From a virus (taxonomy: Duplodnaviria > Heunggongvirae > Uroviricota > Caudoviricetes), in the IMG/VR virus record IMGVR_UViG_2700989510_000001, positions 1-13,999 of that record: 13,999 bases of DNA; one strand, written 5' to 3'. This document shows, one piece after another, positions 1-13,999 of the stretch (its first letter is position 1; each line of letters starts with the position of its first letter). The notes beneath the pieces were generated by a model, which saw nothing but the letters and a program-made list of their open reading frames with translations, was not told the DNA's origin and ran no database searches. Made by a program: the position numbers and the translations under genes.

Positions 1-156
1 TTACTCCTCAGGTTCGTAAGCTGTGAAGACAGCGACCTCCGTCTGGCCGGTTCGGATTCGTACCTCGCAGAGGTCTTTCCTCGTTACCAGTGCCGTCACA
101 ATGACGGTTAAACAGATGACGATCAGGGCGATTAACATCGCCTTTTGCTGCTTCAT
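1..156 (-). CDS. hok: Hok/Gef family type I toxin, 51 aa
   Basis: Minus-strand translation MKQQKAMLIALIVICLTVIVTALVTRKDLCEVRIRTGQTEVAVFTAYEPEE: one N-terminal TM helix plus the conserved Hok motif (LTRK.LCE..R.G..EVA.F.AYE). AGGAG sits about 9 nt upstream of the ATG at 156; TAA stop at 1-3. The six-frame ORF extends in frame to 213 (70 aa), but the 51-aa form matches Hok family length. Confidence 0.8.
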   Translation of the reverse strand: MKQQKAMLIALIVICLTVIVTALVTRKDLCEVRIRTGQTEVAVFTAYEPEE

Positions 157-402
157 AGCCTGCTTCTCCTTGCCTTTCGGCACGTAAGAGGCTAACCTAC
201 GTTTGTGAAGCATAGATTGGGCCTCAGATTAATGTTAAACGTCTTGCAGGACGCGTAATGTTAACTGGGGCTTTTCTCTATCTGCCTTTTGGTGTTCATG
301 CCTGAGACAGATAGCCTCAAGCACCCGCAGCAATTCTACTTAACTCTCGCTTTACCGCAAACCGTTTTTACCCGATATGGGAATTCCCATATCGTAATGA
401 AT

Positions 403-507
403 TCAGTTCCCTAGTCGATCCATCAAAAACACAACCAGGCAGTAAACGCCCACAACAGCAATAACAGCCAGCGCACCTTCCATTGCCAGTGAAATATCAT
501 CCGACAT
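403..507 (-). CDS. hypothetical small hydrophobic peptide, 34 aa
   Basis: Hand translation of the minus strand gives MSDDISLAMEGALAVIAVVGVYCLVVFLMDRLGN with TGA stop at 403-405. A strong SD (AAAGGAGGGAAT) immediately precedes the ATG at 505-507. Below the 60-aa cutoff of the ORF track. Single predicted TM segment. Confidence 0.35.
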   Translation of the reverse strand: MSDDISLAMEGALAVIAVVGVYCLVVFLMDRLGN

Positions 508-622
508 ATTCCCTCCTTTGGTGTGAATCCCGGCGAACGTTTTTACCCCCACCGACAAATAACATATACTAAAAAATCAATAGCTATAGCAACGCCTGTA
601 ATTGCAAAGGCTTCAGGCCAGA

Positions 623-1336
623 TCATTGGCGCACCTCCTGCGGCGGTTCTGGTAGCGGCATCCAGTCGGTTACATTGCGGCTCTGTGTTTCGAAAAATTC
701 ATCACCATTACGGACTACATCAAAAAACTCACCGTCTCGATATTGCGCATAAAGAACGAATGCGCCATCACATAAAATAATTACGTGCTGACCATCATCC
801 GGCATTCGCTCACTACAGCTTATCCAACCATCCGGAGTTACCGGATAGTTGGTTGACGTTTCCGAGATTTCCCGAAAATTATTGGTTGACGAACCCTTAT
901 TTTCCCGAAAGTTTCCAGCCTGAAGCATGGCGGCGCGGCAGGCGTTCCATATTTCGGCAGCAATATCGCGCTCGCTATCGGTTAATTTGTACGTTGAAAC
1001 ATAGCCAGAGAGCATTTCTACGTTTTCCGGAGTTGCTTCTTCAGGCACTACCGGTGCTGGCTCACGTATTACAGGCTCGCCCATGCGTGATTCTCCCTGC
1101 GCCTCTTTCACCATGTGGTCATTGATTTGCTCCAGTCGCCGAACGTGCTCATCAGCTTCAAGCGCTCGCCGTTTCCAGATGGACAGGTCTTCACGAGCGC
1201 CCTGATATGCGTCACCGTATTCGCCGTTAAATACTGGCGCTGGCGGGGCGATGCGTCCAAGCAACTTATTTACCTCTTTCGCCATCGCGTCATATTTATC
1301 TAAATAGCGATTAGCTTCTAAGCAGACTCGGTGCAT
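623..1336 (-). CDS. prophage protein with C-terminal DUF551-like domain
   Basis: 237-aa ORF. C-terminal region WISCSERMPDDGQHVIILCDGAFVLYAQY...VTDWMPLPEPP resembles the DUF551 signature as I recall it. No convincing SD at the 1336 ATG; an internal ATG (MAKEV, about 1288) is an alternative start. Confidence 0.7.
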   Translation of the reverse strand: MHRVCLEANRYLDKYDAMAKEVNKLLGRIAPPAPVFNGEYGDAYQGAREDLSIWKRRALEADEHVRRLEQINDHMVKEAQGESRMGEPVIREPAPVVPEEATPENVEMLSGYVSTYKLTDSERDIAAEIWNACRAAMLQAGNFRENKGSSTNNFREISETSTNYPVTPDGWISCSERMPDDGQHVIILCDGAFVLYAQYRDGEFFDVVRNGDEFFETQSRNVTDWMPLPEPPQEVRQ

Positions 1337-1536
1337 CTGATCTGAGTTAACTCGTTTAACTGGATCTGCTTCCAGCTATGCCAGTGCAATTTTGAATAAC
1401 TCGCCCTATACCCGTGCCATCCCTGAATTGGGGTAGCATTTCGCAATCGCTATTTTTAATTTGGCTTCTTCGATTAATTTCTCTTTGGTTAATTCAGTCA
1501 CTTTTCATTACCGCCCTTTCGGGCGGCCTCCTGACA

Positions 1537-1749
1537 TTAATCGTTGTGATAACTCATAGCTTCATTTGCAGCATCAACTGGATCAACATCCCACCAGCAA
1601 TAATTTGGGTCGACACCTTCAGGTGTCCACGGCTCTAATTCATTTTTTGCCGCATTCTCGTCGCCAGTAATTTTAAAAATCTGCTCTGAGAACTTTTTCA
1701 CCCACTCGTTATATTTTTCAGCGTTAATAACTTTCTGTGCGTTTGACAT
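1537..1749 (-). CDS. hypothetical prophage protein, 70 aa
   Basis: ORF with ATG at 1747-1749 preceded by GGAGGT at optimal spacing; TAA stop at 1537-1539. Acidic small protein, no recognisable family. Confidence 0.65.
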   Translation of the reverse strand: MSNAQKVINAEKYNEWVKKFSEQIFKITGDENAAKNELEPWTPEGVDPNYCWWDVDPVDAANEAMSYHND

Positions 1750-1797
1750 TGATATACCTCCGGTTAAGGATTAAATTTTTAACAGAGCTAAATTTAA

Positions 1798-2154
1798 TTA
1801 TTCAGTTCTGGATTTTGTCACCCTGCGTATCCGCGCTTTCACGTTACGCTCAATCTGAATTAGCTTTTCTATATTTCTCCGCCTTTCCCGTTCCTCCTGG
1901 CGCAAGATCCTTACATCATCTGCCAGTCTGGTTTCTCTTTTCGCCACAGAGAGCATCCAGTCAAATGGCTCCACAACTGCACCGCAGATTTTACAGCGGA
2001 CCTGACGCTCTTTTTCGTCAACCCGGACAGAGGCGTGATGGCAATATGGTCTTTCCGATGGCTCATAGAGAAAATTAACCTGATTACGTGGGTCATCCTC
2101 TTTTACCGGAAATAAAACGATATTGCTTAACTCATCTTCTGGTTTTATTTCCAT
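1798..2154 (-). CDS. hypothetical protein with putative zinc-ribbon (C-x-H-H ... C-K-I-C)
   Basis: 118-aa ORF. Strong SD (AAAGGAGAGGAGC) directly upstream of the ATG at 2152-2154. Start overlaps the end of the upstream gene by 23 nt. Cys/His cluster PYCHHASVRVDEKERQVRCKICG. Confidence 0.7.
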   Translation of the reverse strand: MEIKPEDELSNIVLFPVKEDDPRNQVNFLYEPSERPYCHHASVRVDEKERQVRCKICGAVVEPFDWMLSVAKRETRLADDVRILRQEERERRRNIEKLIQIERNVKARIRRVTKSRTE

Positions 2155-2851
2155 GCTCCTCTCCTTTGATGCGAATGCCAGCGGCGCGGATTGCAGCGAT
2201 GACTTCAGAAACTTTGTATGCCATTACCGTTTGGTAATCATCGTGAAAATCTGTTCGATGAAGCATGCTGCTACGTTCTGGGAGCGATATTTCCCGTGCT
2301 TCCAGTTCTGCAATGCGCTTCTCTGCGGATTCCAACGCCGCAACCAATTCGTCTACAGTTCCGGCAGCTTGCAGTGCGTAATCGGTAATAGCCATCTCAT
2401 GATCAATTTCAGTACCGTTCTCATTCGTTGAGGTGATAGCAAAATAATCAGAGTCGATTTCGTTATCAGCTAAGTGGCGTAGCGTATCGGCAACAAGCCG
2501 GCCGTTTTCGATTAGCAGCTTCCCTTCCGTAAGCGCAATCTCCTCGTTCTCCTGGTCGCGTGATTTGATGTATTGCTGGTTTCTTTCCCGTTCATCCAGT
2601 AGTGCCAGCGCAACATTTGGATTAAAGGCAGCAATAAATTCAGCGTTTGCGTAAGCCTGAGCATCTGTTTCAACCAGGCAGTTAACATGACATTCTGCAA
2701 TTACGCCACCGGGTTCTCCTTTCCATTTTTGACAAACAAAAACTCCTGTTATATTCCCATGCTGATTGCCCGATGTATGCCCTACGATGTAGCATCCTTT
2801 AGTTGCTTTCTCTGCTGCTTCACGAAGCGCCTCATAGTTAACCTCTCTCAT
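2132..2851 (-). CDS. Ead/Ea22-like prophage protein
   Basis: 239-aa ORF. N-terminus ...YEALREAAEKATKG... resembles lambdoid Ead/Ea22-like early proteins as I recall them. AGGAGGTGG SD upstream of the ATG at 2849-2851. ATGA start/stop overlap with the upstream gene. Confidence 0.75.
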   Translation of the reverse strand: MREVNYEALREAAEKATKGCYIVGHTSGNQHGNITGVFVCQKWKGEPGGVIAECHVNCLVETDAQAYANAEFIAAFNPNVALALLDERERNQQYIKSRDQENEEIALTEGKLLIENGRLVADTLRHLADNEIDSDYFAITSTNENGTEIDHEMAITDYALQAAGTVDELVAALESAEKRIAELEAREISLPERSSMLHRTDFHDDYQTVMAYKVSEVIAAIRAAGIRIKGEEHGNKTRR

Positions 2852-3144
2852 TGAGCCACCTCCTGATAAATCACCGTATGTCCCAGTTTCTCCGCCAGTG
2901 CCAGCTCTGCCTTAGCGCCCGCTGACCGCTGCCAGCCATTCAGCATGTAAATCGCATCCACGCAACGAATCATTGCCATGCAAATATCCATGTAGTGCGG
3001 CTGTGTCAGCCCGTCCGGAAGTACTGCCGGGTTTAAGACTGTATGCCCTTCCCGTTTCAGTTCCTCTTCCGCCTTGTGGAACGCCTCACGGTTGAAATTT
3101 TTATACCCGGTCATCGGACCGGCGATATAAACCCTCACCCTCAC
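2848..3144 (-). CDS. DUF4406-like (nucleoside 2-deoxyribosyltransferase-like fold) protein
   Basis: 98-aa ORF beginning (M)RVRVYIAGPMTGYKNFNREAF, the N-terminal motif I associate with DUF4406. GTG start at 3142-3144 with AGGAGGT 6 nt upstream; GTGA overlap with the upstream stop. Confidence 0.75.
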   Translation of the reverse strand: MRVRVYIAGPMTGYKNFNREAFHKAEEELKREGHTVLNPAVLPDGLTQPHYMDICMAMIRCVDAIYMLNGWQRSAGAKAELALAEKLGHTVIYQEVAQ

Positions 3145-3533
3145 TCCATCACCTCCTGAAAATTACCCCGATAGAACGCCAGCACACGCTGCATAACTTC
3201 GCTCTGGCGGCACTCACGACAAATTATGTTCTGCCGTCTGTTGTAACGACGTATTTCTCCGTCAGGTAACTTTCGAATCAGTGTCGGGTCAGCAGCCTTC
3301 TCCGGTGTCTTACGCCATACGCGATACGCCTGCTCTGATAGAAATACCCCGCAACCAGAGAGCCAGACATCACCACTGGCCGCAAGCGCACCAGATAAAC
3401 GACGAATAGCGGTCTTACTGACACCCGTTTTATCTGCCAGTTGTCGAAAAGTTTCTCGTCCGCTCAGGCGCACGAATTCCACAATGCGCGCCCTCACTTC
3501 TTCCCGCTCTTCTGGTGTAAATACTTTTGCCAT
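3141..3533 (-). CDS. hypothetical protein with probable HTH
   Basis: ORF track gives 3141..3548, but that first codon is TTG. The in-frame ATG at 3531-3533 (MAKVFTPEE...) has GGAGG 5 nt upstream and lies just after the upstream stop (3549-3551). Segment ETFRQLADKTGVSKTAIRRL looks like a helix-turn-helix. Confidence 0.7.
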   Translation of the reverse strand: MAKVFTPEEREEVRARIVEFVRLSGRETFRQLADKTGVSKTAIRRLSGALAASGDVWLSGCGVFLSEQAYRVWRKTPEKAADPTLIRKLPDGEIRRYNRRQNIICRECRQSEVMQRVLAFYRGNFQEVME

Positions 3534-3548
3534 AAGCGCCTCCGGCAA

Positions 3549-4274
3549 TCACTTTTCCGACACAATACGACCGGATGAATCGACAATCTGCCGAACAATA
3601 TCCCGGTGCTTGTTCAGCTCCCGCAGCGCGGCGCAGACACGCTCCCACTTCTGAACCTGACCTTTTGCCCGGCGCAGCTCGCGGTTAGCCACATGCAGCG
3701 ATGGTAAAATCAGACCATCCGGATGTTTTCTGGTGAACAACGGCTGTGACTGCACTGTGACCGCCACACTTTCAGTTTTTATTTCTTCCTGTGTTTCCGC
3801 TTCCCGGACTGGTAACGCAACACCTGTTGGCTGAGGAAAGGCTTTACCATCGGTTTCCACTACGGATGCAGCTTCCGGCTCTGCCGGTAAATCAGCACCC
3901 GGTATGCAGTAACGAAATTTACCGCCCTGATTCACGCGAATCAGACGCCCTTTGCTGATTGCCATGGCCAGCGATGAATTCGCCCGGCGGGAGGTAATCC
4001 CGAACATCAGTGCCAGCTCATCCGCCGTTTGTGGGCCATGTTGTTCAATCGCCTCAGTCAGCATTTTCGCTGTCACTTTCGGTACCGGTGACACCGGTTC
4101 ACTTTCACCAGCCTGAATCAGCCACCACATCGACCCCTTGTTATCCGCTTCACCGCGGCGCTTCAGTTTCCACAGTTCGTTGACCGCATCTTCACGGCTG
4201 ATTCCAAGGCGGGCCGCCACTACCTGTGAAGAGGCTCTTTTCAGTGCTTTCAGTGCGTCAAATACGGTTTCCAT
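3549..4274 (-). CDS. prophage protein with two winged-helix-like segments (DUF1627-like)
   Basis: 241-aa ORF. ATG at 4272-4274 with GGAGGAAA SD. HTH-like segments [25 protein letters not shown] and [29 protein letters not shown]. Confidence 0.75.
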
Positions 4275-4307
4275 TAAAATTTCCTCCGATAAAATCGTTT
4301 CTCAGAT

Positions 4308-4970
4308 TCAAATAAAACCAGCTGCCTTCCGGCGTTCGTATTCCTGTTTCAGCCGTTCAATTGGCGTTGGCCCTTGCGGGTGTTTCGCCCCTTCCAGTTG
4401 TCGTCGCACTGGCGGAACACTCATCCCGTTACCAACATGCTTTGCCCATTTCGTCAGTTGCCGTTCCGCAAGTCGTTTTAACTCACCCTGCGTCATCTGG
4501 CGCTCAATCCCTCTGGTACGCATTTCGAGGCAGATGTGGTACAGCACAGGCTGTGGCCACGGGTATTTATCACTCCCGTCGTATCGCCAGGATTCATTGC
4601 GCCAGCGCCGGTACTCTTCCATCACGGCATCCACCGTAAGACCAAATGGATTTGCCCCACTCTCCGAAATCAGCGCAACAAACTCAGCCAGGTCCGGGGG
4701 CCACGTTTCACCCGCCCGGCAGCGGTCCATGCACTGACGGCAGACCAGACGGATTTGCTGTTCAGTCATCGCACCAATCTGGGCAATCCAGAGCTTCGAA
4801 GGTGCGGCCCCGTTCTTCTGAGTCCAGCGGTTCGAATACACCTCCCCCATAAGCTCCCACAGCTTCCAGGCCGTTTCCGTTGCTGATAAATCCGTTTTCA
4901 CGTTCCCACTGTTCGCGTGCTGCCCGGATTTCCTGAACTGCCCGTGATGCCGTGCCACCTGGTGCTGCAT
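4308..4970 (-). CDS. replication protein P-like (putative DnaB helicase loader)
   Basis: C-terminal half (...YPWPQPVLYHICLEMR...ELKRLAERQL...) parallels lambda P (...YPWKSNAHYWLVTNLY...ELRRKAADEL...) from memory. Start uncertain: the ATG at 4970 (AGGGGG SD) overlaps the upstream gene by 209 nt; an in-frame ATG at 4850 (GGGAG SD) is the alternative. Confidence 0.7.
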   Translation of the reverse strand: MQHQVARHHGQFRKSGQHANSGNVKTDLSATETAWKLWELMGEVYSNRWTQKNGAAPSKLWIAQIGAMTEQQIRLVCRQCMDRCRAGETWPPDLAEFVALISESGANPFGLTVDAVMEEYRRWRNESWRYDGSDKYPWPQPVLYHICLEMRTRGIERQMTQGELKRLAERQLTKWAKHVGNGMSVPPVRRQLEGAKHPQGPTPIERLKQEYERRKAAGFI

Positions 4971-5793
4971 GGCTTACCCCCTTGCTGACTGGTTTTACCT
5001 GTGCCCTGACGTGCTGCACGTGGCGGGCAAATTTCTGCTCCCACTGAACCTGCGTGAAAACCTTCCCTTCCGCCATCCAGTAATCCCGGAATGCGGCAAG
5101 CTCAGCAGGTGTAAATTCCGGCTCAGGCAGAGCCATACCCCACACTGCTGCCCGTTGTCGAAAATCCGGCGACGGCTGCCAGACAGTAGTCATCGAAAAT
5201 TTCCCGATCGGTTCGCTCAGGCCGTCCAGGTATTCAGGTTCGGCTGTCTGCAACGGCGCACCATTCGACTCACTGGTCGGAATACTCTCGCGCGCGTTAT
5301 GTGTGGGGTTTAATTCTGTATCTGTATCTTTATCTGTCGTGACTTGTCGTGACAGATGCGTGACACGTCGTGACTCATCGTGACAATCAGCATTATGTTT
5401 CCGCAGCTTTTCCCGCTCCCGCTGCGCTCTCTTGCGCTCTGCCGGGGATTTTGCCGTTTGCGAAACGTTACCATTGTCCTCTTTCAGCACCTGACGTTTT
5501 TCCCATCCGGAAATAAGGTCACCATCCAGAACCCGCCCCTGCATTGCATGCAAAATTGAATCAATTACGTCTTCCGTCACATCAAGCGCACTTGCTAAAT
5601 CTTCCGTCGTGACATCAATGTGACCACGTAGTGACACGCCGTGACATGTCGTGACATTTCGTGACGCGCTCACCAGAAGATGGATATACACTGCCATCAC
5701 TGTTGCGATTGGCTGTCCTGATACCCTGGCAATCGTTCGCCACTTGGGGTCATTTGGCATGTCATGCCACAATCTGAGCCAGGCATTAGCCAT
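4762..5793 (-). CDS. replication initiation protein (O-like role) with DnaT-like C-terminal domain
   Basis: Segment GKFSMTTVWQPSPDFRQRAAVWGMALPEPEFTPAELAAFRDYWMAEGKVFTQVQWEQKFARHVQ closely parallels the C-terminal domain of E. coli primosomal protein DnaT as I recall it. The ORF track starts at a GTG (5799); the ATG at 5791-5793 has AGAGGTGA SD. The gene contains two iteron arrays. Confidence 0.8.
   Translation of the reverse strand: MANAWLRLWHDMPNDPKWRTIARVSGQPIATVMAVYIHLLVSASRNVTTCHGVSLRGHIDVTTEDLASALDVTEDVIDSILHAMQGRVLDGDLISGWEKRQVLKEDNGNVSQTAKSPAERKRAQREREKLRKHNADCHDESRRVTHLSRQVTTDKDTDTELNPTHNARESIPTSESNGAPLQTAEPEYLDGLSEPIGKFSMTTVWQPSPDFRQRAAVWGMALPEPEFTPAELAAFRDYWMAEGKVFTQVQWEQKFARHVQHVRAQVKPVSKGVSHAAPGGTASRAVQEIRAAREQWERENGFISNGNGLEAVGAYGGGVFEPLDSEERGRTFEALDCPDWCDD
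5312..5386. repeat. iteron array 1 (putative phage origin element): TATCTGT repeats followed by 5 x (T/G)CGTGAC at about 10-bp spacing
   Basis: TCGTGAC at 5337, 5347, (GCGTGAC 5358), 5368, 5378, i.e. one per helical turn, all in the same orientation, preceded by tctgtatctgtatctttatctg. Lies inside the initiator gene. Confidence 0.6.
5605..5667. repeat. iteron array 2 (putative phage origin element): 6 x GTGAC(A) at 10-11 bp spacing
   Basis: GTGAC at 5609, 5620, 5631, 5641, 5651, 5661 with 10-11 bp periodicity, same orientation as array 1, about 270 bp away and inside the same gene. Confidence 0.6.
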
Positions 5794-5861
5794 ACTCACC
5801 TCTTCTGATACCGAACTTTACCCACGAACTTCCGAAAGAAATCCGGTATAAATATTGTTGG

Positions 5862-6287
5862 TCAATGCACAACAACTGCATTACCAGGCTGACCACCACT
5901 GTTAGTCAGGGTGCCCCAGGCGATCGCTACAGCGATAAAATCATCCACATCTTTCACCAGCCGATCCCGTCGTTCGACGATCTCCCGGTAATATTCAGAA
6001 CTGTGACTGCGCATACGGGCCACCAGCAAAGGCGGCATCGCCTTTTCGATCGCCGGTAACAGCGCCTGAATTTTTTCAACCGCATCAGGCGTATCCTTCT
6101 CCACCCAGCGGAAAATTTTCTGGGTATTACGGGCCAGGGCTTCCGGATGGCTGTCGTCGTACAGTTCCGGGAACGTCATCCCAAGTTCGAAATAAGTCCG
6201 GGCTATTTCAGCTGCAGGCACTTTCTCACCATCAGGATATGCCCAGGCATTCATCGCCATGCGGATGTGTTCATGTTTGATTTTCAT
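5862..6287 (-). CDS. CII-position protein, YdaT-like
   Basis: 141-aa ORF starting MKIKHEHI, which I recall as the N-terminus of Rac YdaT-family proteins. ATG at 6285-6287 overlaps the upstream stop (ATGA). Sits between the cro-like gene and the replication initiator, the lambda cII position. Confidence 0.65.
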   Translation of the reverse strand: MKIKHEHIRMAMNAWAYPDGEKVPAAEIARTYFELGMTFPELYDDSHPEALARNTQKIFRWVEKDTPDAVEKIQALLPAIEKAMPPLLVARMRSHSSEYYREIVERRDRLVKDVDDFIAVAIAWGTLTNSGGQPGNAVVVH

Positions 6288-6511
6288 GAATCATTTTTCC
6301 TTTCGTTCGAGGTGTTATCCTTCTTTTTGTAAAGTTCTGGGTTCAACGATAATTTTCCCTTGGAGTATGCAACTGCTTCAGCAGCCCTCCCCTTGGGAAC
6401 TATTTCGCCGGGACGCTTACGCCACATGTATATAGCTTCTCGGGTTACCCCATAAAAATCAGCGACTCTTTGGACAGAACCAAAAAACTGGACAAGTTCA
6501 TCAACTCGCAT
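6284..6511 (-). CDS. Cro-like HTH regulator (YdaS-like)
   Basis: 75-aa ORF with HTH segment VQRVADFYGVTREAIYMWRKR. GGGGGTG SD upstream of the ATG at 6509-6511. Divergent from the cI-like repressor across a 98-bp operator region. Confidence 0.75.
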   Translation of the reverse strand: MRVDELVQFFGSVQRVADFYGVTREAIYMWRKRPGEIVPKGRAAEAVAYSKGKLSLNPELYKKKDNTSNERKNDS

Positions 6512-6609
6512 TTCACCCCCTTAAAACTAAGTATTTTTAGATTAAAGGGTAATTTTTTTTAGGTCAATACAATCTAAAATAATTTATATTCAATTCGCGG
6601 GAGAAAATA
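6512..6609. promoter_or_regulatory. divergent immunity promoter/operator region (pR-like leftward, pRM-like rightward)
   Basis: 98-bp AT-rich intergenic region between divergent cro-like and cI-like genes. Inverted repeat ATTTTTAGATT (6533-6543) / AATCTAAAAT (6571-6580). Leftward candidate promoter TTGACC-17-TAATCT (minus strand; GGTCAA at 6562-6567 on plus). Rightward candidate -10 TATATT at 6585-6590. SD GGGAG before the cI ATG. Confidence 0.5.
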
Positions 6610-7254
6610 ATGGAAAGCCTTGGCATTAGGCTTAAGAAACTCAGAAAAGACAAAGGTCTGACCCAAGTTGAACTTGGCAAGCTTTCTGGCGTAACTGGGG
6701 TAACAATAGGATACTGGGAGAAAGATCTAAACGAACCAGGTAGCAAAGCTCTTAGTAAATTAGCCCTAGCACTAGGCACTACTGAGTCCTATCTCCTGTA
6801 TGGAGTATCATCTCCTGAATCATCCCTTGTGCAGAAAAATCCAGGTACCCAAATCCCATACCTTTCTTGGGGAGAAGCGATTTCTTTCCTAATATTAAAA
6901 GGAGAGAAAACTATGGGAACTGTCGACAGGATCACCACATTCTTTGATGTCAAGGAGGGAGATTTTGCCGTTTCAATGCCTGATGATACTATGCACAATC
7001 CATCAGGGTCCCCAAGCATTCCAGTTGGAGCCACAGTGATCATGAGGCCTGGCGAAAAATATAAAAATGGTAGCATCGTCGCAGTAATAGTCCCAGATCC
7101 ACTCACAAACGAACCATCCATGACTATAAAAAAATTAGTTATTGATGGAAAGCTCGTGTACTTAGCCCCCCTTAACCCACGCTATCAATCATCCTTACTT
7201 ACACCGGAATGTAACATCGTTGCTGTAGCAAAAGGTGTTCAGTTCAGCCTCTAG
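6610..7254 (+). CDS. cI: cI-like prophage repressor: N-terminal HTH_XRE + C-terminal S24 (LexA-like) peptidase domain
   Basis: 214-aa ORF. HTH LTQVELGKLSGVTGVTIGYWE. C-terminal block TIKKLVIDGKLVYLAPLNPRYQ parallels lambda cI [21 protein letters not shown] (catalytic Lys region). Ser-Met in AVSMPDD is the candidate nucleophile. Confidence 0.9.
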   Translation: MESLGIRLKKLRKDKGLTQVELGKLSGVTGVTIGYWEKDLNEPGSKALSKLALALGTTESYLLYGVSSPESSLVQKNPGTQIPYLSWGEAISFLILKGEKTMGTVDRITTFFDVKEGDFAVSMPDDTMHNPSGSPSIPVGATVIMRPGEKYKNGSIVAVIVPDPLTNEPSMTIKKLVIDGKLVYLAPLNPRYQSSLLTPECNIVAVAKGVQFSL

Positions 7255-7278
7255 CTCCCGCTTTGCCCTGTAATCAGA

Positions 7279-7303
7279 GGTCGGCTTTGTCGGCCTTTTA
7301 TCT
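7279..7303 (+). terminator. possible intrinsic terminator after cI
   Basis: GGTCGGC-TTT-GTCGGCC can pair as RNA only with two G-U wobbles, followed by TTTTATCTT. Weak. Confidence 0.3.
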
Positions 7304-7323
7304 TAAAAATATTTACATTCAAC

Positions 7324-7352
7324 TTGACGGCAAAACTAAATATTCTTATATT
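7324..7352 (+). promoter_or_regulatory. candidate sigma70 promoter for the downstream moron
   Basis: TTGACG (7324-7329), 17-nt spacer, TATATT (7347-7352): near-consensus -35/-10 with optimal spacing, between the cI stop and the next rightward genes. Confidence 0.5.
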
Positions 7353-7528
7353 CATTGCAACCCACCCCGCTTCACAGAATGCAGGGCAATACTTCGAGTT
7401 ACCAGGCAGTGGTCAGGGGTTAAGTAGCCAGCCCGAGGCGTAAGAACATGACGGCAGGGTTCAACTTTAATAACTATGCAGCAGGTTTTTGTTCCGCTAC
7501 CCCGGCGTTAAGGGGAAATGAGGTCAGC

Positions 7529-7681
7529 ATGGATACTATCGATCTTGGCAACAACGAATCTCTGGTATGTGGCGTGTTTCCCAATCAGGACGGCACGTTT
7601 ACCGCGATGACGTATACCAGAAGCAAAACGTTTAAAACTGAAGCTGGCGCGCGTCGCTGGTTAGCCAGAAACACTGACTGA
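7529..7681 (+). CDS. small hypothetical protein (50 aa; 77 aa if started at 7448)
   Basis: ORF track gives 7448..7681. The ATG at 7529 has GAGG 5 nt upstream; the 7448 ATG has a poorer SD. Sequence ...GVFPNQDGTFTAMTYTRSKTFKTEAGARRWLARNTD. Stop TGA overlaps the downstream ORF. Confidence 0.5.
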   Translation: MDTIDLGNNESLVCGVFPNQDGTFTAMTYTRSKTFKTEAGARRWLARNTD

Positions 7682-7692
7682 TGAGGTTGACG

Positions 7693-8331
7693 ATGGAATT
7701 TAAAGATTTACCTCCTTCAATCCAGGAGATTGCAGCACACACACTTCGTCATCGTCTGAACGAACTTGAATTGGAATCGGTAACGAAAAAAGACACTGAT
7801 AATATGGCTCGTAATGTGCGCGATGCGTTTACCGGATTGTATTTCTGTGCGTCTATAAATAAACACGACTCAGAGAGTGTGGCAAATAAAATTGCAGAAA
7901 CGACAGCGCAAAACATCAATACGAAACCAACGGAAGAAGAAATTGATCAGTTTGCTCATGATGCTGGTTTAAAAAACAAGAAAGAAAAATCGCCATATGC
8001 GGGGAACATGTTTGTTTATGACAATCTCATCAGAATTCGTGGCGAAATTCCGGCGGAATACCTGGCAAGAGTCCATCAGGCATTGCTTAAAAATTTGGAA
8101 ACAGAATTATTTGATGGCAACACTAACGGTTTCTTCATGGTATCAGGCCTTGAGAAAGACTGGGATGCAGAAAAACGCTGGAATGTTGCTACATGGTTAT
8201 TCAGTAACAGAGCCGCTGCACTGGAAGCTTCGGCATGTATTTGCGGCCTGTTCTTAACAGACCACAAATATAATCTGGATGTGTACAGTTATATTTACGC
8301 TGAACACGGTCCACTCTGGATTGACTGGTAA
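7693..8331 (+). CDS. hypothetical protein, 212 aa, AT-rich moron gene in the rexAB-equivalent position
   Basis: ORF track starts at 7681 (ATG overlapping the upstream TGA); the ATG at 7693 has GAGG 6 nt upstream. AT-rich relative to flanks. No TM segment and no recognisable family. Co-oriented with and downstream of cI. Confidence 0.75.
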   Translation: MEFKDLPPSIQEIAAHTLRHRLNELELESVTKKDTDNMARNVRDAFTGLYFCASINKHDSESVANKIAETTAQNINTKPTEEEIDQFAHDAGLKNKKEKSPYAGNMFVYDNLIRIRGEIPAEYLARVHQALLKNLETELFDGNTNGFFMVSGLEKDWDAEKRWNVATWLFSNRAAALEASACICGLFLTDHKYNLDVYSYIYAEHGPLWIDW

Positions 8332-8541
8332 TTATAAGGAAACACCAGCAGGGCCGCGGCGACCAACAGAACGATTAAAATCAATAATGCCATTATAAAG
8401 GACATTATTTAATTTATCGTCGAATGCTGATTCTGTGAGCCTCAACTCTGAATGAGTTTTTAATAACCCTGATTGCCTGAGTTGATTTACCAGGCATTCA
8501 ATCTGTTTTTCAATAAGCGGATTTCTTTTTTTGTTTGGCAT
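8332..8541 (-). CDS. hypothetical small protein, 69 aa
   Basis: ORF track gives 8332..8553; the second ATG (8539-8541, MPNKKRNPLIEKQ...) is preceded by GGAGGATAAA. Its stop codon directly abuts the stop of the convergent 212-aa gene (TAATTA at 8329-8334). Confidence 0.5.
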   Translation of the reverse strand: MPNKKRNPLIEKQIECLVNQLRQSGLLKTHSELRLTESAFDDKLNNVLYNGIIDFNRSVGRRGPAGVSL

Positions 8542-8940
8542 TTTATCCTCCATTGAGGTTCTGGGTTAAAAATGGAGACCAACACGCTGTCACGTGTGGT
8601 CGTGCGCCGGACACGGATAAGAATCCGGTACTGACAGTTTACTGAAAGGATATTTCCCTGAAAAGTCAGGGCATAACGCGAAAGCGTACGGCGAAGCTCT
8701 TTCCCTTAGAAGGCTTGTCGTTAGATTTCTTCGAACGTGCGCTTCCGGTTGTGGCAATCCGCGAAATGGCGCGGCGGTAAGTATGGCGGGGTTATTCCTT
8801 CCCCATTGAGGACACCGGGTTGTCAGGTTGACCATACGCTTAAGTGACAACCCCGCTGCAACGCCCTCTGTTATCAATTTTCTGGTGACGTTTGGCGGTA
8901 TCAGTTTTACTCCGTGGCTGCTCTGCCGCCCTTTTTAAAG

Positions 8941-9088
8941 TGAATTTTGTGATGCGGTGAATGCGGCTCAGCGCACGCGGAACAGTTAAAACCAAAAACA
9001 GTGTTATGGGTGGATTCTCTGTATCCGGCGTTAATTGTTAACTGGTTAACGTCACCTGGAGGCACCAGGCACCGCATCACAAAATTCA
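8941..9088. repeat. perfect 19-bp inverted repeat pair flanking a 110-bp segment
   Basis: Left arm TGAATTTTGTGATGCGGTG (8941-8959); right arm CACCGCATCACAAAATTCA (9070-9088), its exact reverse complement. The match does not extend on either side. The right arm ends 17 nt before the ATG at 9106. Confidence 0.6.
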
Positions 9089-9105
9089 TTGTTGAGGACG
9101 CGATA

Positions 9106-9294
9106 ATGGAAACGTTATTACCAAACGTTAATACGTCTGAAGGTTGTTTTGATATTGGTGTTCTGCTCAGTAACCGGGAGTTTACTGAAGATGCCATTAA
9201 TATGAGGAAATATGAGCCTTATCTGCTCAATGATAATTCCATACTTTCCCGAATTGCTCTTCTTGAACTTGGTATTTTCGGAGAACGTCAATGA
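9106..9294 (+). CDS. small hypothetical protein, 62 aa (kil position of early-left operon)
   Basis: ATG at 9106 with GAGGA SD (ORF track frame begins at 9001). Stop overlaps the next ATG (ATGA at 9291-9294). First gene after the ORF-poor region and upstream of the exonuclease. Confidence 0.5.
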   Translation: METLLPNVNTSEGCFDIGVLLSNREFTEDAINMRKYEPYLLNDNSILSRIALLELGIFGERQ

Positions 9295-9461
9295 CTTCAG
9301 CATTTGCACTGATGATGACGGTTTTTCTTATAACGGGTGAATCACAGAATGTGATTACCGGAATTTATGCCAGTAAAGAATCCTGCCTCCAGGCAAGAGA
9401 CGAGCAAAAAATTTCTGGTGAATGCCTCCCGGTAAAAAAAAGTATCGCTGTACCTGAATAA
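9291..9461 (+). CDS. small hypothetical protein, 56 aa, hydrophobic N-terminus
   Basis: Hand translation MTSAFALMMTVFLITGESQNVITGIYASKESCLQARDEQKISGECLPVKKSIAVPE, TAA at 9459-9461. Translationally coupled (ATGA) to the upstream ORF. Below the ORF-track size cutoff. Confidence 0.5.
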   Translation: MTSAFALMMTVFLITGESQNVITGIYASKESCLQARDEQKISGECLPVKKSIAVPE

Positions 9462-9572
9462 CGAAACACCGGCTGGATAACCCTCCAGCCATATTAACAC
9501 CATACCAACGGATTAAAAATGCCAGCAATGGCAGGGATTTGTTCACCCTTAAATCTGTAATGAGGTTTATCA

Positions 9573-12032
9573 ATGAGCACTGATAAAGAAGAATTTGCGC
9601 TATATTGCGAAGCAAAAAATGACAAAGTCAGAAAACGTCTGGGAATTAAAGGTGGTTTTTACTGGACTACAGCAAAAAAATTATCTGTTGCCATCTCCCG
9701 CTGCATTACCGCAATGGATGACAACGATTATGATGAAGACGACTTTAAAAAACCCGTTCGCGTCCATTTACCCGTTGTGAATGACCTTCCACCTGAAGGC
9801 GTGTTTGATACCGAATTCTGCAACCGATACGAAAAAGGCGGGGAAGATGGCATTACAATGGTATTTATCGCGCCCTCTCCCTCCGTGCAGGAGAAACCAG
9901 CCAGTACTGACAATACCAACGTCAACGGCGAAGACATGACGGAGATTGAGGAGAATATGCTCCTGCCGGTTTCTGGTCAGGAGCTGCCCATTCGCTGGCT
10001 TGCGCAACACGGCAGCGAAAAACCAGTAACGCACGTTGCACGGGAAGAACTTCAGGCATTACATATAGCACGGGCGGAAGAACTGCCGGCTGTTACTGCC
10101 CTGGCCATTTCCCACAACACAAAGCTGCTCGACCCGCTGGAGATTCGCGACCTTCATAAACTGGCACGCGACACTGACAAAGTTTTCCCTAATCCCGGTA
10201 ATTCAGACCTGGGACTGATAACTGCTTTTTTCGAGGCATACCTGGACGCTGACTACACTGATCGGGGTCTGCTGACAAAAGAGTGGATGAAAGGAAATCG
10301 TGTTTCGCGTATCACCCGTACGGCTTCCGGTGCAAATGCCGGTGGCGGGAACAAAACCGATCGCAATCCGAATTTAGTACACACCTTCGATACGCTGGAT
10401 GTGGAGATTGCAGCAGCCACACTTCCGATGGATTTTAATATTTATGAAATTCCGGGCAGCGTTTATCGTCGCGCAAAAGAAATCGTCCTGAAAAGAGAAA
10501 GTCCGTTCAAAGAATGGTCCGCAGCACTTCGCGCAACCCCGGGTATTCTGGACTATTCCCGCGCCGCTATTTTTGCACTTATCCGGAGCGCTCACCCTGA
10601 GTTTTATCACTACCCGGGACGCCTTCAGGGGTATATCAACGCCTACTTAACGGAGACTGATCACGAGAACCCCAGCAAGGAAACTCTCACTGCTGCACGA
10701 CATACACCGGAAAAAGATATCCTGGAAGAAGTTAACCGCGAACTGGCTGCTAAGCAGGAAACAGAAGAAGAAAATGATGAAGAAAAACCGCAACCATCTT
10801 GCGCAATGGCAGATGAACAGGCAACGGCTGAAACAGTGGAACCGGATGCAACTGAACATCATCAGGACACGCAGCCGCTGGATGCTCAGTCACAGGTAAA
10901 TTCTGTTGATGCGAAATATCAGAAACTGCGGGCAGAACTCCATGAAGCCCGGAAAAACATTCCGCCCCAAAATCCTGTCGATGCAGACAAATTACTGGCT
11001 GCCTCTCGCGGAGAATTTGTTGAAGGGATTAGCGACCCGAATGATCCGAAATGGATTAAGGGGATCCAGACCCGCGATTCTGTGTACCAGAATCAGCCAG
11101 AAACGGAACAGAACGACCAGAAAGCGGAACAGAACAGCCCAAATACGCAACAAAACGAGCCAGAAACGAAACAACCTGAACCAGTAGTGCAACAGGAACC
11201 GGAAAAGATCTGCACCACCTGCGGTCAGACCGGCGGCGGCAACTGCCCTGATTGTGGCGCGGTGATGGGCGACGCAACATACCAGGAAACATTCGATGAC
11301 AAGAACCTGGTTGAAGTTCAGGAAGACGATTCGGAGAAAATGGAAGGCGCTGAACATCCACACAAGGAGAATGCTGGCAGCGCTCAGGACCACGCCAGCG
11401 ATAGTGAAACTGGCGAGACGGCAGATCCCTTAATTACGGTGAACGGTCATCACGTTATCACATCCACCAGCAGGACGTGTGACCATCTAATGATCGACCT
11501 TGAAACCATGGGAAAAAATCCTGATGCCCCGATTATCTCAATAGGTGCAATATTTTTCGATCCGCAAACCGGAGATATGGGACCGGAATTTAGTAAGACT
11601 ATCGATCTGGAAACTGCTGGCGGAGTCATTGATCGGGACACCATTAAATGGTGGCTTAAGCAATCACGCGAAGCGCAATCTGCCATTATGACCGATGAAA
11701 TCCCGTTAGATGATGCACTGTTACAATTGCGGGAATTTATCGACGAAAACTCCGGTGAATTCTTTGTTCAGGTCTGGGGAAATGGAGCCAACTTCGACAA
11801 CACGATTTTGCGCCGTTCATACGAACGGCAGGGGATCCCCTGCCCGTGGCGTTACTACAACGATCGCGATGTGCGCACAATCGTTGAGCTGGGGAAAGCC
11901 ATAGACTTCGATGCCAGAACGGCTATTCCATTCGAAGGTGAGCGCCATAATGCACTTGATGACGCCCGTTACCAGGCAAAATACGTTTCAGTTATCTGGC
12001 AAAAACTGATCCCGAGTCAGGCTGATTCTTAA
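9573..12032 (+). CDS. prophage exonuclease: RecE-like N-terminal region + zinc ribbon + C-terminal DnaQ-like DEDDh 3'-5' exonuclease domain
   Basis: 819-aa ORF with GAGGT SD. N-terminal blocks ([70 protein letters not shown]) match what I recall of the RecE (exodeoxyribonuclease VIII) N-terminal region. [16 protein letters not shown] is a zinc-ribbon-like motif. C-terminus carries DEDDh motifs: MIDLETMG (D-x-E), [12 protein letters not shown] (D), HNALDDARY (H-x3-D). Confidence 0.9.
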
Positions 12033-12042
12033 TGTTCAACTG

Positions 12043-12074
12043 TCGCCGGTTGTGACTGGTATTCTGCAACCGGC
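12043..12074 (+). other. 9-bp-stem hairpin between exonuclease and excisionase genes
   Basis: CGCCGGTTG (12043-12051) / CAACCGGCG (12066-12074), perfect 9-bp inverted repeat with 14-nt loop; no downstream U-tract. Confidence 0.3.
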
Positions 12075-12104
12075 GCTCGTCTGATGTAAGAGATAAAGAA
12101 AGCG

Positions 12105-12356
12105 ATGAGCGAAGTAATCATGATTGTCTCTCCCGGCAAATGGGTATCCGAAGAGCAGTTAATTGCGCTGAAAGGAATAAAAAAAGGTACGTTAAAAAAG
12201 GCCCGGGAAAAATCGTTTATGGAAGGAAGGGAATATAAGCATGTCGCTCATGACGGTATGCCATGGGATAACAGTCCATGCTTTTACAACCTGGAAGAAA
12301 TTGATCGCTGGATTGAGCGCCAGGCATCTGCAAGACCAAGACGTCATCTTGCTTGA
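12105..12356 (+). CDS. xis: excisionase-like protein
   Basis: 83-aa ORF immediately upstream of the integrase on the same strand. Contains a GREY motif reminiscent of lambda Xis (DGREY). Start could also be the ATG at 12120. Confidence 0.65.
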   Translation: MSEVIMIVSPGKWVSEEQLIALKGIKKGTLKKAREKSFMEGREYKHVAHDGMPWDNSPCFYNLEEIDRWIERQASARPRRHLA

Positions 12357-12390
12357 CTAAAAGCAACACGAACCAATGAGAGAAGCTGAA

Positions 12391-13671
12391 ATGAAATATC
12401 CGACAGGCGTGGAAAACCATGGAGGGAAATTACGTATCTGGTTTGTTTATAAAGGTGTAAGAGTCCGGGAAAATCTTGGGGTTCCTGACACAGCAAAAAA
12501 CAGGCGCATTGCAGGTGAGCTACGCGCCTCTGTTTGTTACGCAATAAAAACTGGCGCTTTCGACTATGCAAAACAGTTTCCCGCCTCACACAATCTGGAA
12601 AAATTTGGTGAGGCCCGACAAGATTTAACCATAAAAGAACTGGCTGAAAAATTTCTGGCACTGAAAGAAACTGAAGTCGCAAAAACGTCACTCAACACGT
12701 ACCGTGCCGTCATCAAAAATATTCTGAGCATAATCGGTGAAAAAAATCTTGCATCATCGATTAATAAAGAAAAATTGCTGGCGGTACGTAAAGAGTTACT
12801 GACTGGATACCAGATCCCCAAAAGTAACTATATTGTTACACAACCAGGGAGATCGGCTGTTACCGTAAATAATTACATGACAAATCTTTACGCCGTGTTC
12901 CAGTTTGGTGTTGATAACGGTTATCTGGCAGACAATCCATTTAAGGGGATCTCACCATTAAAGGGGTCGAGAACCATCCCGGATCCACTTTCGCGGGAGG
13001 AGTTTATCCGCCTTATTGACGCGTGCAGAAATCAGCAAGCCAAAAATTTATGGTGTGTTTCCGTTTATACTGGGATTCGCCCTGGTGAACTCTGTGCGCT
13101 TGGATGGGAAGATATAGATCTGAAAAATGGAACAATGATAATCAGAAGAAATCTGGCAAAAGACCGTTTTACAGTACCAAAAACACAGGCGGGAACCAAT
13201 CGTGTGATTCACCTTATTAAGCCCGCAATCGACGCTCTCCGGAGTCAGATGGCACTAACGAGACTGAGCAAAGAGCATATCATCGATGTTCACCTCAGAG
13301 AATTCGGCAGAACAGAGAAACAAAAATGTACCTTTGTTTTTCAACCTGAAGTGTCAGCGAAAGTAAAAAATTATGGTGACCATTTTACCGTTGACTCAAT
13401 AAGGCAGATGTGGGACGCAGCGGTAAAGCGTGCCGGAATCCGCCATCGCAAATCGTATCAGTCGAGACACACTTATGCCTGCTGGTCGTTAACAGCAGGA
13501 GCTAACCCGGCATTCATTGCAAACCAGATGGGCCATGCAGATGCGCAAATGGTGTTTCAGGTGTACGGGAAATGGATGTCAGAAAATAATAATGCGCAGG
13601 TAACGCTGTTAAATACACAGTTAAGCGAGTTTGCCCCAACCATGCCCCATAACGAAGCGATGAAAAGTTAA
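12391..13671 (+). CDS. int: tyrosine site-specific integrase (lambdoid/Rac-type)
   Basis: ORF track starts at 12376; the ATG at 12391 (MKYPTGVENHGGKLRIWF...) has a GAGAAG SD-like element and matches the N-terminus I recall for Rac-type integrases. C-terminal catalytic box ...RHTYACWSLTAGANPAFIANQMGHADAQMVFQVYGKW (R, H-x-x-R, H, Y). Confidence 0.9.
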   Translation: MKYPTGVENHGGKLRIWFVYKGVRVRENLGVPDTAKNRRIAGELRASVCYAIKTGAFDYAKQFPASHNLEKFGEARQDLTIKELAEKFLALKETEVAKTSLNTYRAVIKNILSIIGEKNLASSINKEKLLAVRKELLTGYQIPKSNYIVTQPGRSAVTVNNYMTNLYAVFQFGVDNGYLADNPFKGISPLKGSRTIPDPLSREEFIRLIDACRNQQAKNLWCVSVYTGIRPGELCALGWEDIDLKNGTMIIRRNLAKDRFTVPKTQAGTNRVIHLIKPAIDALRSQMALTRLSKEHIIDVHLREFGRTEKQKCTFVFQPEVSAKVKNYGDHFTVDSIRQMWDAAVKRAGIRHRKSYQSRHTYACWSLTAGANPAFIANQMGHADAQMVFQVYGKWMSENNNAQVTLLNTQLSEFAPTMPHNEAMKS

Positions 13672-13814
13672 TTTTTTATTTATCAATTAGTTAGATTGAA
13701 TGACTCTTGAAATCCATAAATTCAAGCGCAGTGCCCAGCCATCCCGATACTGCTGCTTTCACCAAATCCTTAGTGCTTCTTTCATGTTTTTCTATTGTCA
13801 TAATGGTTATCTCT

Positions 13815-13882
13815 AAAAAAGAGGTAAGAAGCGTACTACTTACTCGCCGTTATTGGTATTATTCAGAAAAAGGTAAGCGTAC
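13815..13882. repeat. direct repeats AAAAAGGTAAG(AA)GCGTAC downstream of int; candidate integrase arm-type sites in the att region
   Basis: aaaaaagaGGTAAGaaGCGTAC (13815-13836) and agaaaaaGGTAAGCGTAC (13865-13882), about 50 bp apart, then a short palindrome GTCTGGTCAGAATCTGAC (13893-13910). Function inferred from position only. Confidence 0.35.
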
Positions 13883-13999
13883 AGCCTGAACCGTCTGGTC
13901 AGAATCTGACGAATTAGACAAAGTGGTGTCCACCAAATAAGTAGTGGGAACCAAAGTGTCAGATATGCAGAAAAATGTGACTCCCGGCAGGCGAAAAGG

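Follow-up and report, generated by a model that had tools for sequence, protein, structure and literature searches.

Phased repeat arrays inside the initiator gene of a Rac-like lambdoid prophage: a putative replication origin

In phage lambda, four iterons followed by an AT-rich tract lie midway along the O gene, and in Stx phages the iterons number six (PMC7466680). The gp38 protein of SPP1 binds the direct repeats of oriL inside gene 38, beside an AT-rich unwinding element (PMC6316719), and ORF13 of TP901-1 and Rep2009 of Tuc2009 bind direct repeats in their own genes (PMC8965321). Here we analyze a stretch of 13,999 nucleotides (nt) from a virus of the Caudoviricetes (IMG/VR record IMGVR_UViG_2700989510_000001, positions 1 to 13,999), referred to below as the window, in which the gene of a replication initiator contains two arrays of short direct repeats. 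In a preliminary description of the window, these iterons had been proposed to be a prophage origin resembling lambda ori. This proposal is supported by signs of selection at the DNA level, by the conserved positions of the arrays and by the covariation of their units, all of them read from sequence; in addition, an AT-rich tract abuts one array, and the gene of a P-type helicase loader follows.

We conclude that a lambdoid, Rac-like prophage probably has its replication origin in this region, inside the coding sequence of the initiator. The individual claims differ in strength. The arrays are almost certainly selected cis elements; it is very likely that the initiator binds their units; and it is likely, with somewhat less assurance, that the arrays form the origin. 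The identity of the binder, the site of melting, the loading of the helicase and the role of the array here named A are what we infer beyond that. The argument refers to the following features, listed in the order in which the gene is read (aa, amino acids; ssDNA, single-stranded DNA).

4762..5793, minus strand: initiator gene, 343 aa (open reading frame (ORF) and translation); holds both arrays, the inverted unit and the AT-rich tract
5608..5666, minus strand: array A (array 2 of the preliminary description), six GTCAC(G) units at gene nt 129, 139, 149, 159, 170 and 181; encodes aa 43-62
5576..5580 (gene nt 214-218), minus strand: single inverted unit, GTGAC in gene sense, 33 nt past the last array A unit
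5389..5445, minus strand: codes for the basic helix (aa 117-135, AERKRAQREREKLRKHN), a helix in the structural model; just upstream of array B
5337..5385, minus strand: array B (array 1 of the preliminary description), five GTCACG units at gene nt 410, 420, 430, 441 and 451; encodes aa 137-152
5310..5337, minus strand: (GATAMA)n tract, AT- and purine-rich, ACAGATAAAGATACAGATACAGAATTAA in gene sense; encodes DKDTDTELN
4999..5199, minus strand: DnaT-like ssDNA-binding domain, aa 199-265 (Pfam DnaT, E 2.9e-17)

Several features are shared with lambda and the Stx phages. In both cases the origin, a putative one here, lies inside the initiator ORF and the gene of a P-type loader comes next; read in the direction of transcription, the iterons lead into an AT tract whose sense strand is rich in A and in purines and encodes a linker rich in K, D and T; and the N-terminal half of the initiator carries the specificity while the C-terminal half is exchangeable, with a mosaic joint at the origin. 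In both, too, iteron number varies in frame: in Stx phages a gain of two iterons adds 13 aa, and here a gain of two units adds 7 aa. There are also differences. The initiator is no homologue of O (there is no Pfam Phage_rep_O match, DnaT being its sole Pfam match); its units are direct repeats with a 6-bp core, recurring every 10-11 bp, whereas the lambda sites are about 19 bp long and internally symmetric; and it has two clusters, of six and five units, 230 bp apart and one of them in the region coding for the DNA-binding domain, whereas lambda has one. The region most likely works as lambda ori does, outside the O family.

Repeat arrays and selection on the DNA

On the + strand of the window, CGTGAC starts at 5338, 5348, 5359, 5369 and 5379 (spacing 10, 11, 10 and 10), each copy preceded by T or G, and GTGAC starts at 5609, 5620, 5631, 5641, 5651 and 5661 (spacing 11, 11, 10, 10 and 10). 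That is, the five (T/G)CGTGAC units at about 10-bp spacing (5338-5384) and the six GTGAC units at 10-11 bp (5609-5665) that had been noticed beforehand were recovered, as were the TATCTGT repeats ahead of the former (TTAATTCTGTATCTGTATCTTTATCTGT, at 5310-5337). The arrays had been placed about 270 bp apart in one orientation; we measure 271 bp from first unit to first unit, and the orientation is the same throughout. Because the gene is read on the minus strand, its sense reverses the order first given: array 2 occupies codons 43-62, ahead of array 1 at codons 137-152. Neither promoter nor terminator signals stood out from the background.

No simulated sequence reached this concentration of units. 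Nine of the ten copies of CGTGAC in the 14-kb window fall within a 330-bp stretch (5338-5665), on the same strand. Six same-strand copies of GTGAC occur within 60 nt, against a maximum of four in 3000 first-order Markov simulations of the window; when clusters of any 5-mer were considered, 300 simulations reached five at most, and two such clusters are present in the window. In a prophage that matches the 601-bp core of the region (5250-5850) at 100%, the other 50 kb contain no further unit cluster.

Relatives of the locus were collected in a scan of one genome per species, which gave 63 loci (Gamma-, Beta- and Alphaproteobacteria, Acidobacteria and one Gemmataceae metagenome-assembled genome (MAG)), and in three scans of viral contigs, which gave about 240 more; the first of the latter returned near-identical E. 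coli copies only, and the later ones used divergent queries. Arrays were sought blind to their motif, as 5-mers repeated at 9-12-nt spacing. This search finds the same two positions occupied in most genes, in a layout common to about 200 related loci. The unit itself differs by subfamily, the classes being GTCACG (as in the window), GTAACG, (C)GAACGC, GTGACGC and a mixed GTNACG, with ACG as common core. Array B is nearly universal and has 2-7 units, and array A has 0-6, its number shifting in steps of 21 nt (7 aa). L041, whose array B has grown to seven units, lacks array A, as do L049 and L058, and in L059 array A is displaced. Because some relatives are without array A, we propose array B and the adjoining tract as the core of the putative origin, with array A as an auxiliary. 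In L054 (Serratia MAG) and L065 (Pantoea sp.), CTACGTA-type repeats stand at the array B position, without a GATAMA tract, and the N-domain is fused to a part that by eye resembles a GIY-YIG nuclease (YVYxV...GIS.NPWAR).

The helical phasing claimed for the arrays holds inside each of them, where units follow one another at 10-11 bp, and does not hold between them, since the distance from array to array differs among relatives: measured from last unit to last unit it is 249, 258, 267, 270, 308 or 339 nt. Across relatives, no constant helical phase between the arrays was thus seen.

A period of 10-11 nt places the units in all three reading frames, such that TGT-CAC gives C-H, TCA-CGN gives S-R and GTC-ACN gives V-T. 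The resulting peptides, SRNVT..RGH..VT and CHDESRRVT, appear as 'invariant' columns in protein alignments, and a protein repeat is ruled out because the units are read in all three frames. The DNA was assessed by resampling synonymous codons in 45 genes of the family, with codon frequencies taken from the same gene outside its arrays, and by counting units over the first 174 codons. The 45 genes, from hosts with GC contents of 0.42 to 0.68, contain 328 units, where resampling predicts 79. For 30 of the 45 the observed count was never reached; P was 0.002 for another eight and at most 0.094 for any gene. Therefore, the constraint acts on the DNA, and an origin of the arrays in a protein repeat or in neutral slippage is rejected. 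What results is a pair of overlapping codes, in which the seemingly invariant residues SRNVT, RGH and CHDESRNVT would be dictated by a signal in the DNA that is translated in three frames, a circumstance relevant both to how conservation is read and to the synonymous recoding of phage genomes. The inverted unit at 5576-5580 is probably also under selection at the DNA level, because about 21 of 25 genes of the GTCACG class keep it at an identical offset; it codes for D-V-T, with the Val always GTG.

The (GATAMA)n tract, which is TTAATTCTGTATCTGTATCTTTATCTGT on the + strand, was detected by Tandem Repeats Finder with period 6 at 5315-5337. Its GC content of 0.375 is the equal-lowest reading in the profile of 4700-6000, tied with three other readings of that profile. 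Of 25 GTCACG-class genes, 24 have hexamers resembling GATAAAGATAAAGA beginning 4 nt past the last B unit (e.g., gtcacGACAGATAAAGATA and gtcacGCTAGATAAAGATA), and the tract is kept beside array B even in Pseudothauera (GC 0.68). Over the 40 nt past array B in 47 genes, the mean AT content is 0.67, compared with 0.45 gene-wide, and the purine content of the sense strand is 0.73. Extra B units are added upstream, and the junction of last unit and tract is constant at 4 nt. We propose the tract as a candidate DNA unwinding element. The suggestion that the two arrays bracket the unwinding region did not hold up: the DNA between them is ordinary coding sequence for the conserved N-domain, with about 50% GC, and the AT tract is beyond array B, outside the pair. 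Among the E. coli prophage copies (L072-L151), whose N-domains are 96-100% identical, the hexamer count ranges from 1 to 9; (GATAMA)n behaves like an in-frame hexamer microsatellite, and its changes in length alter a run of DK/DT dipeptides in the linker.

Initiator protein and unit classes

The initiator begins with a winged-helix-like N-domain and ends with a DnaT-like domain; a basic helix and a disordered linker connect the two. An AlphaFold2 model built with 74 homologues is confident and helical over aa 1-100, the winged-helix-like N-domain, and less confident in a beta-hairpin inside that domain (aa 47-56); the basic helix (aa 117-135) is followed by a disordered linker (about aa 137-190) and then by the DnaT domain. 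Array A codes for the hairpin of the N-domain and array B for the start of the linker. Because these segments are of low confidence or disordered in the model, both arrays appear to be placed where the protein tolerates sequence imposed by the DNA.

With Foldseek, the C-terminal domain matches the DnaT structures 4ou6 and 6aeq at 52-59% identity, while the score against NCBIfam PRK02854 is 94 bits with a cut-off of 201. The initiator is thus not equivalent to E. coli DnaT over its full length; the C-terminal ssDNA-binding domain alone matches. The product also matches PHROG 'replication initiation protein' families, as well as PHROG 10469, 'DnaD-like helicase loader' (E 7e-8). Searched alone against Pfam, the N-domain had no match even at E up to 10, and Foldseek returned for it winged-helix matches only, all non-significant.

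The class of the unit is shared by the two arrays. Among 140 unique N-domains, 124 genes have both arrays, and in 123 of them array A is of the same class as array B; the sole exception, L064, has both unit types in array A. Such concerted switching would offer a natural system for studying how the specificity between initiator and origin evolves, and the classes give predicted incompatibility and immunity groups among co-resident prophages.

Which part of the protein may read the unit can be approached by comparing classes. With the hairpin masked, identities of the winged-helix part are 0.60-0.68 between classes and 0.58-0.74 within them, i.e., the unit classes are not separated. Some winged-helix parts that are 86-90% identical belong to different classes, namely L041 (GAACGC), L186 (GTGACGC) and L187 (GTAACG), of Acidobacteria type, and likewise L049 (GTCACG) and L057 (GAACGC); the members of these sets differ in the basic helix, which has W, F, Y or Q at one position. 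The basic helix tracks the class imperfectly: ERKRxQRE accompanies GTCACG in 70 of 73 cases and ERAKAWRE accompanies GAACGC in 34 of 46, and the R.+.[FY]RE type (F or Y) is found with GTAACG and GTGACG. L049 combines a winged helix of the GAACGC lineage with a basic helix of GTCACG type and GTCACG units in array B, its array A is decayed, and it appears to be a natural recombinant. Because the type of the helix tracks the unit class and the winged-helix part does not, we hypothesize that the basic helix is the candidate determinant of iteron specificity; its linkage to array B and the phylogenetic structure of the family confound the correlation. The hairpin peptide encoded by array A was also considered as a specificity element, which would make the code self-referential, and rejected as the simplest explanation: in members without array A, the conserved RG is followed by V, T or H, not consistently related to the unit of array B.

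Proposed origin and alternative explanations

The gene is a mosaic. In a megablast search against phage genomes it splits at 5315-5335: the C-terminal half with the tract is 87-89% identical to Rac-SA53 ydaU/ydaV and relatives, and the N-terminal half with the arrays is 82-84% identical to other phages. The tract thus appears to mark a mosaic joint to an exchangeable C-terminal half. In E. coli L005-L007, the same N-terminal half and arrays are joined to another C-terminal half, which has no Pfam match and is followed by DUF977, without a P gene; array A has four units there rather than six (21 nt, 7 aa shorter), and the inter-array distance is the same. The neighbours of distant loci differ as well, e.g., DUF7694 and DUF6475; neighbouring genes were taken from low-GC loci only, quick ORF calls in high-GC loci being spurious. 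The constant partner of the arrays is only the N-terminal part of the initiator. Because the C-terminal half and the neighbours vary while this part stays with the arrays, the initiator is the most economical candidate for the binder.

We envision the following mechanism. Transcription from the cro-side promoter would supply the initiator, whose N-terminal part, i.e., the winged-helix-like domain with the basic helix, would bind the 6-bp GTCACG units. Because the units recur every 10-11 bp, the bound protomers would be aligned along a single face of the helix and could form a nucleoprotein complex similar to the O-some. The five units of array B, together with the abutting (GATAMA)n tract, would make up the core origin, with the duplex opening at the tract. 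The exchangeable DnaT-like, ssDNA-binding C-terminal domain and the adjacent P-type loader would then recruit the host DnaB. Array A, with its six units 230 bp upstream in the region coding for the N-domain, would be auxiliary, most likely through cooperative binding or looping, and may also give the initiator feedback on its own gene.

Other described systems share parts of this anatomy. The replisome organizers of TP901-1, Tuc2009, r1t (ORF11) and SPP1 also have direct repeats in their own gene near AT-rich DNA, and RefSeq labels several homologues of the present initiator 'phage replisome organizer'. The Pfam model PF09681, compared with 30 N-domains of the family, gave weak, sub-threshold matches to 8 of 30 (best E 0.0018) and none to the protein of the window, so the N-domain would be at most a distant relative. 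Unlike the present gene, that of TP901-1 has a single repeat cluster, of period 15 nt, which lies mid-gene, and its N-domain has none, as checked in its sequence. The hosts differ too, being Gram-negative here, as do the C-terminal partners, here a DnaT-like domain and P. Two arrays had been called unusual in comparison with lambda, and rightly so: both lambda and TP901-1 have a single cluster, located in the linker.

Iteron plasmids (P1 incC/incA, F incB/incC and RK2) resemble the locus in having their own winged-helix initiator and direct repeats beside an unwinding element, and a second, separate iteron set that modulates initiation; a control role of array A is, by this likeness, a hypothesis. 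Their iterons, however, are 17-22 bp long, outside the rep ORF and served by Rep_3-type proteins, whereas those described here are 6 bp long, inside the ORF and paired with an unrelated initiator, for which no Rep_3 or RepA-type Pfam match was found. Rac YdaU/YdaV, finally, have about 88% identical DNA in the DnaT-like C-terminal half, the AT tract and the downstream loader, but the N-terminal half of YdaU is of DUF1376 type and its gene has no GTCACG arrays. In Rac-SA53 ydaU (L071, locus 2150-2230), an inverted pair, TGTTCAAACA / TGTTTGAACA, is found beside the tract, and this pair may be the Rac counterpart of the iterons. We found no published description of the origin in the literature on iterons of lambdoid prophages, bacteriophage replication modules, YdaU, DnaT in prophages or replisome organizers, and the Eru paper on non-lambdoid Stx phages mentions neither iterons nor a replication origin nor DnaT. 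The two-part layout, the array in the region coding for the DNA-binding domain, the 6-bp direct units and the concerted switching of units are thus a variant that we did not find described.

Several points weigh against the interpretation as an initiator-bound origin. The region lacks a DnaA box. Searches of Pfam, NCBIfam and PDB gave no significant match to the N-domain, whose mode of DNA binding is thus putative. Winged-helix parts at 86-90% identity carry different units. Gene conversion between arrays A and B could add to their agreement, beyond the effect of a shared binder. The arrays are weak or missing in L033, L039, L046, L053 and L055. No binding, replication or marker-frequency experiment on any member of the family was found published, nor were induction data in favor of the module. 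In O157 Sakai treated with mitomycin C, Sp5, Sp13 and Sp15 alone were amplified, and the Sakai lambdoid prophages with lambda-type loaders did not amplify, Sp15 excepted (PMC2669165); in this comparison the carriers of the present initiator are not mapped, and several of these prophages have non-inducible repressors.

The alternatives concern what binds the arrays and to what end. The initiator might bind them mainly as autoregulatory operators or roadblocks, or as 'handcuffing' sites for copy control, with initiation elsewhere. Array A begins as early as nt 129 of the ORF, a position at which a bound protein might obstruct transcription or translation, some relatives do without it, as would suit a non-essential regulatory role, and iteron plasmids use second iteron sets for control (P1 incA, F incC). 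We nevertheless consider this explanation unlikely, since array B is always joined to an AT-rich tract at a fixed distance, which is the anatomy of an origin and not of an operator, and since the prophage has no other cluster of units. A regulatory role for array A is in any case compatible with an origin at array B. It is also conceivable that the repeats bind another factor, such as a host protein, a terminase small subunit (in a pac-like site), the repressor or YdaT, and that their location in the initiator gene is coincidental. Phased short repeats are known in packaging and partition sites as well, and the failure of the winged-helix part to track the unit class would fit. Against a host factor, however, one and the same unit is shared by such remote hosts as Entomomonas, Bordetella and Pseudothauera, and units differ inside the Enterobacterales (GTCACG in Escherichia, GTAACG-type in Enterobacter and Pantoea). 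Moreover, the arrays remain together with the N-terminal part and the basic helix, whereas neighbouring phage genes and the C-terminal half change, and we regard a different binder as highly improbable.

Least credible of all, and close to negligible, is a neutral by-product without cis function, arising by replication slippage or as an amino-acid repeat in tolerant loops. Both arrays do encode flexible segments of the protein, and the adjacent (GATAMA)n tract does resemble a microsatellite. Yet a 10-11-nt period read in three frames makes no peptide repeat, the excess of 328 units over 79 is not required by the protein, and the units persist across phyla at saturated synonymous divergence. 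We thus favor an origin bound by the initiator. A bolder version of this proposal, which we advance tentatively and with more doubt than belief, is that the arrays represent a distinct, widespread class of origin, in which a 6-bp code is read mainly by the basic helix rather than by the winged helix and array A is a built-in element of copy control or autoregulation. If true, a plasmid-like control logic would be found inside a phage initiator gene, and the 86-90% identical sets with different units would be natural specificity-swap experiments.

Neighbouring genes and distribution

Further genes of the locus to which the argument refers are these (HTH, helix-turn-helix).

4308..4769, minus strand: lambda-P-type helicase-loader gene (Pfam PF06992, E 1e-15; PHROG 109, 'P-like helicase loader'), with the RefSeq start of the matching prophage
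5862-6287, minus strand: YdaT
6284-6511, minus strand: Cro
6610-7254, plus strand: CI-like repressor (HTH and S24 peptidase)

The order is CI-like repressor on the plus strand, then Cro, YdaT, the initiator and the lambda-P-like gene, each on the minus strand. Beyond these come DUF1627, DUF977, Ead/Ea22 and DUF551, and on the other side there are an ExoVIII-like gene, Xis and Int. Judging by its S24 domain, the repressor appears to be cleavable in the SOS response. The locus is thus the early region of a Rac-like lambdoid prophage. If the RefSeq start of the matching prophage is adopted, the first 8 nt of the loader gene are also the last of the initiator gene (4762-4769), which suggests translational coupling.

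The region is present in 1802 of 5426 complete E. coli genomes, and the analysis would define the origin and recognition units of a module found in prophages of about one third of them, including O157:H7. The N-domain occurs in 24 of 50,697 phage records, with no classical model phage among the 24. No small plasmid was found with the gene as its sole replicon; 11 plasmid records match, and they are mostly large or mis-assigned. Over the first 130 aa, proteins of Klebsiella, Enterobacter, Citrobacter, Bordetella, Chromobacterium, Neopusillimonas and Pseudomonas are 60-65% identical to the initiator.

The prophage of E. coli 2014C-3051 (L001) matches 5250-5850 at 100%, and the left-hand genes of the window, DUF551, Ead/Ea22 and DUF4406, have no annotated counterpart in it at the same offsets. 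Because the core matches fully while the left genes do not, the window appears to come from a mosaic relative of this prophage rather than from that exact prophage. The coding sequence of the ExoVIII-like gene (9573-12032, 819 aa) contains, at 11088-11174, about 3.8 copies of a tandem repeat (AGCCAGAAACGGAACAAAACG) with a period of 21/42 nt.

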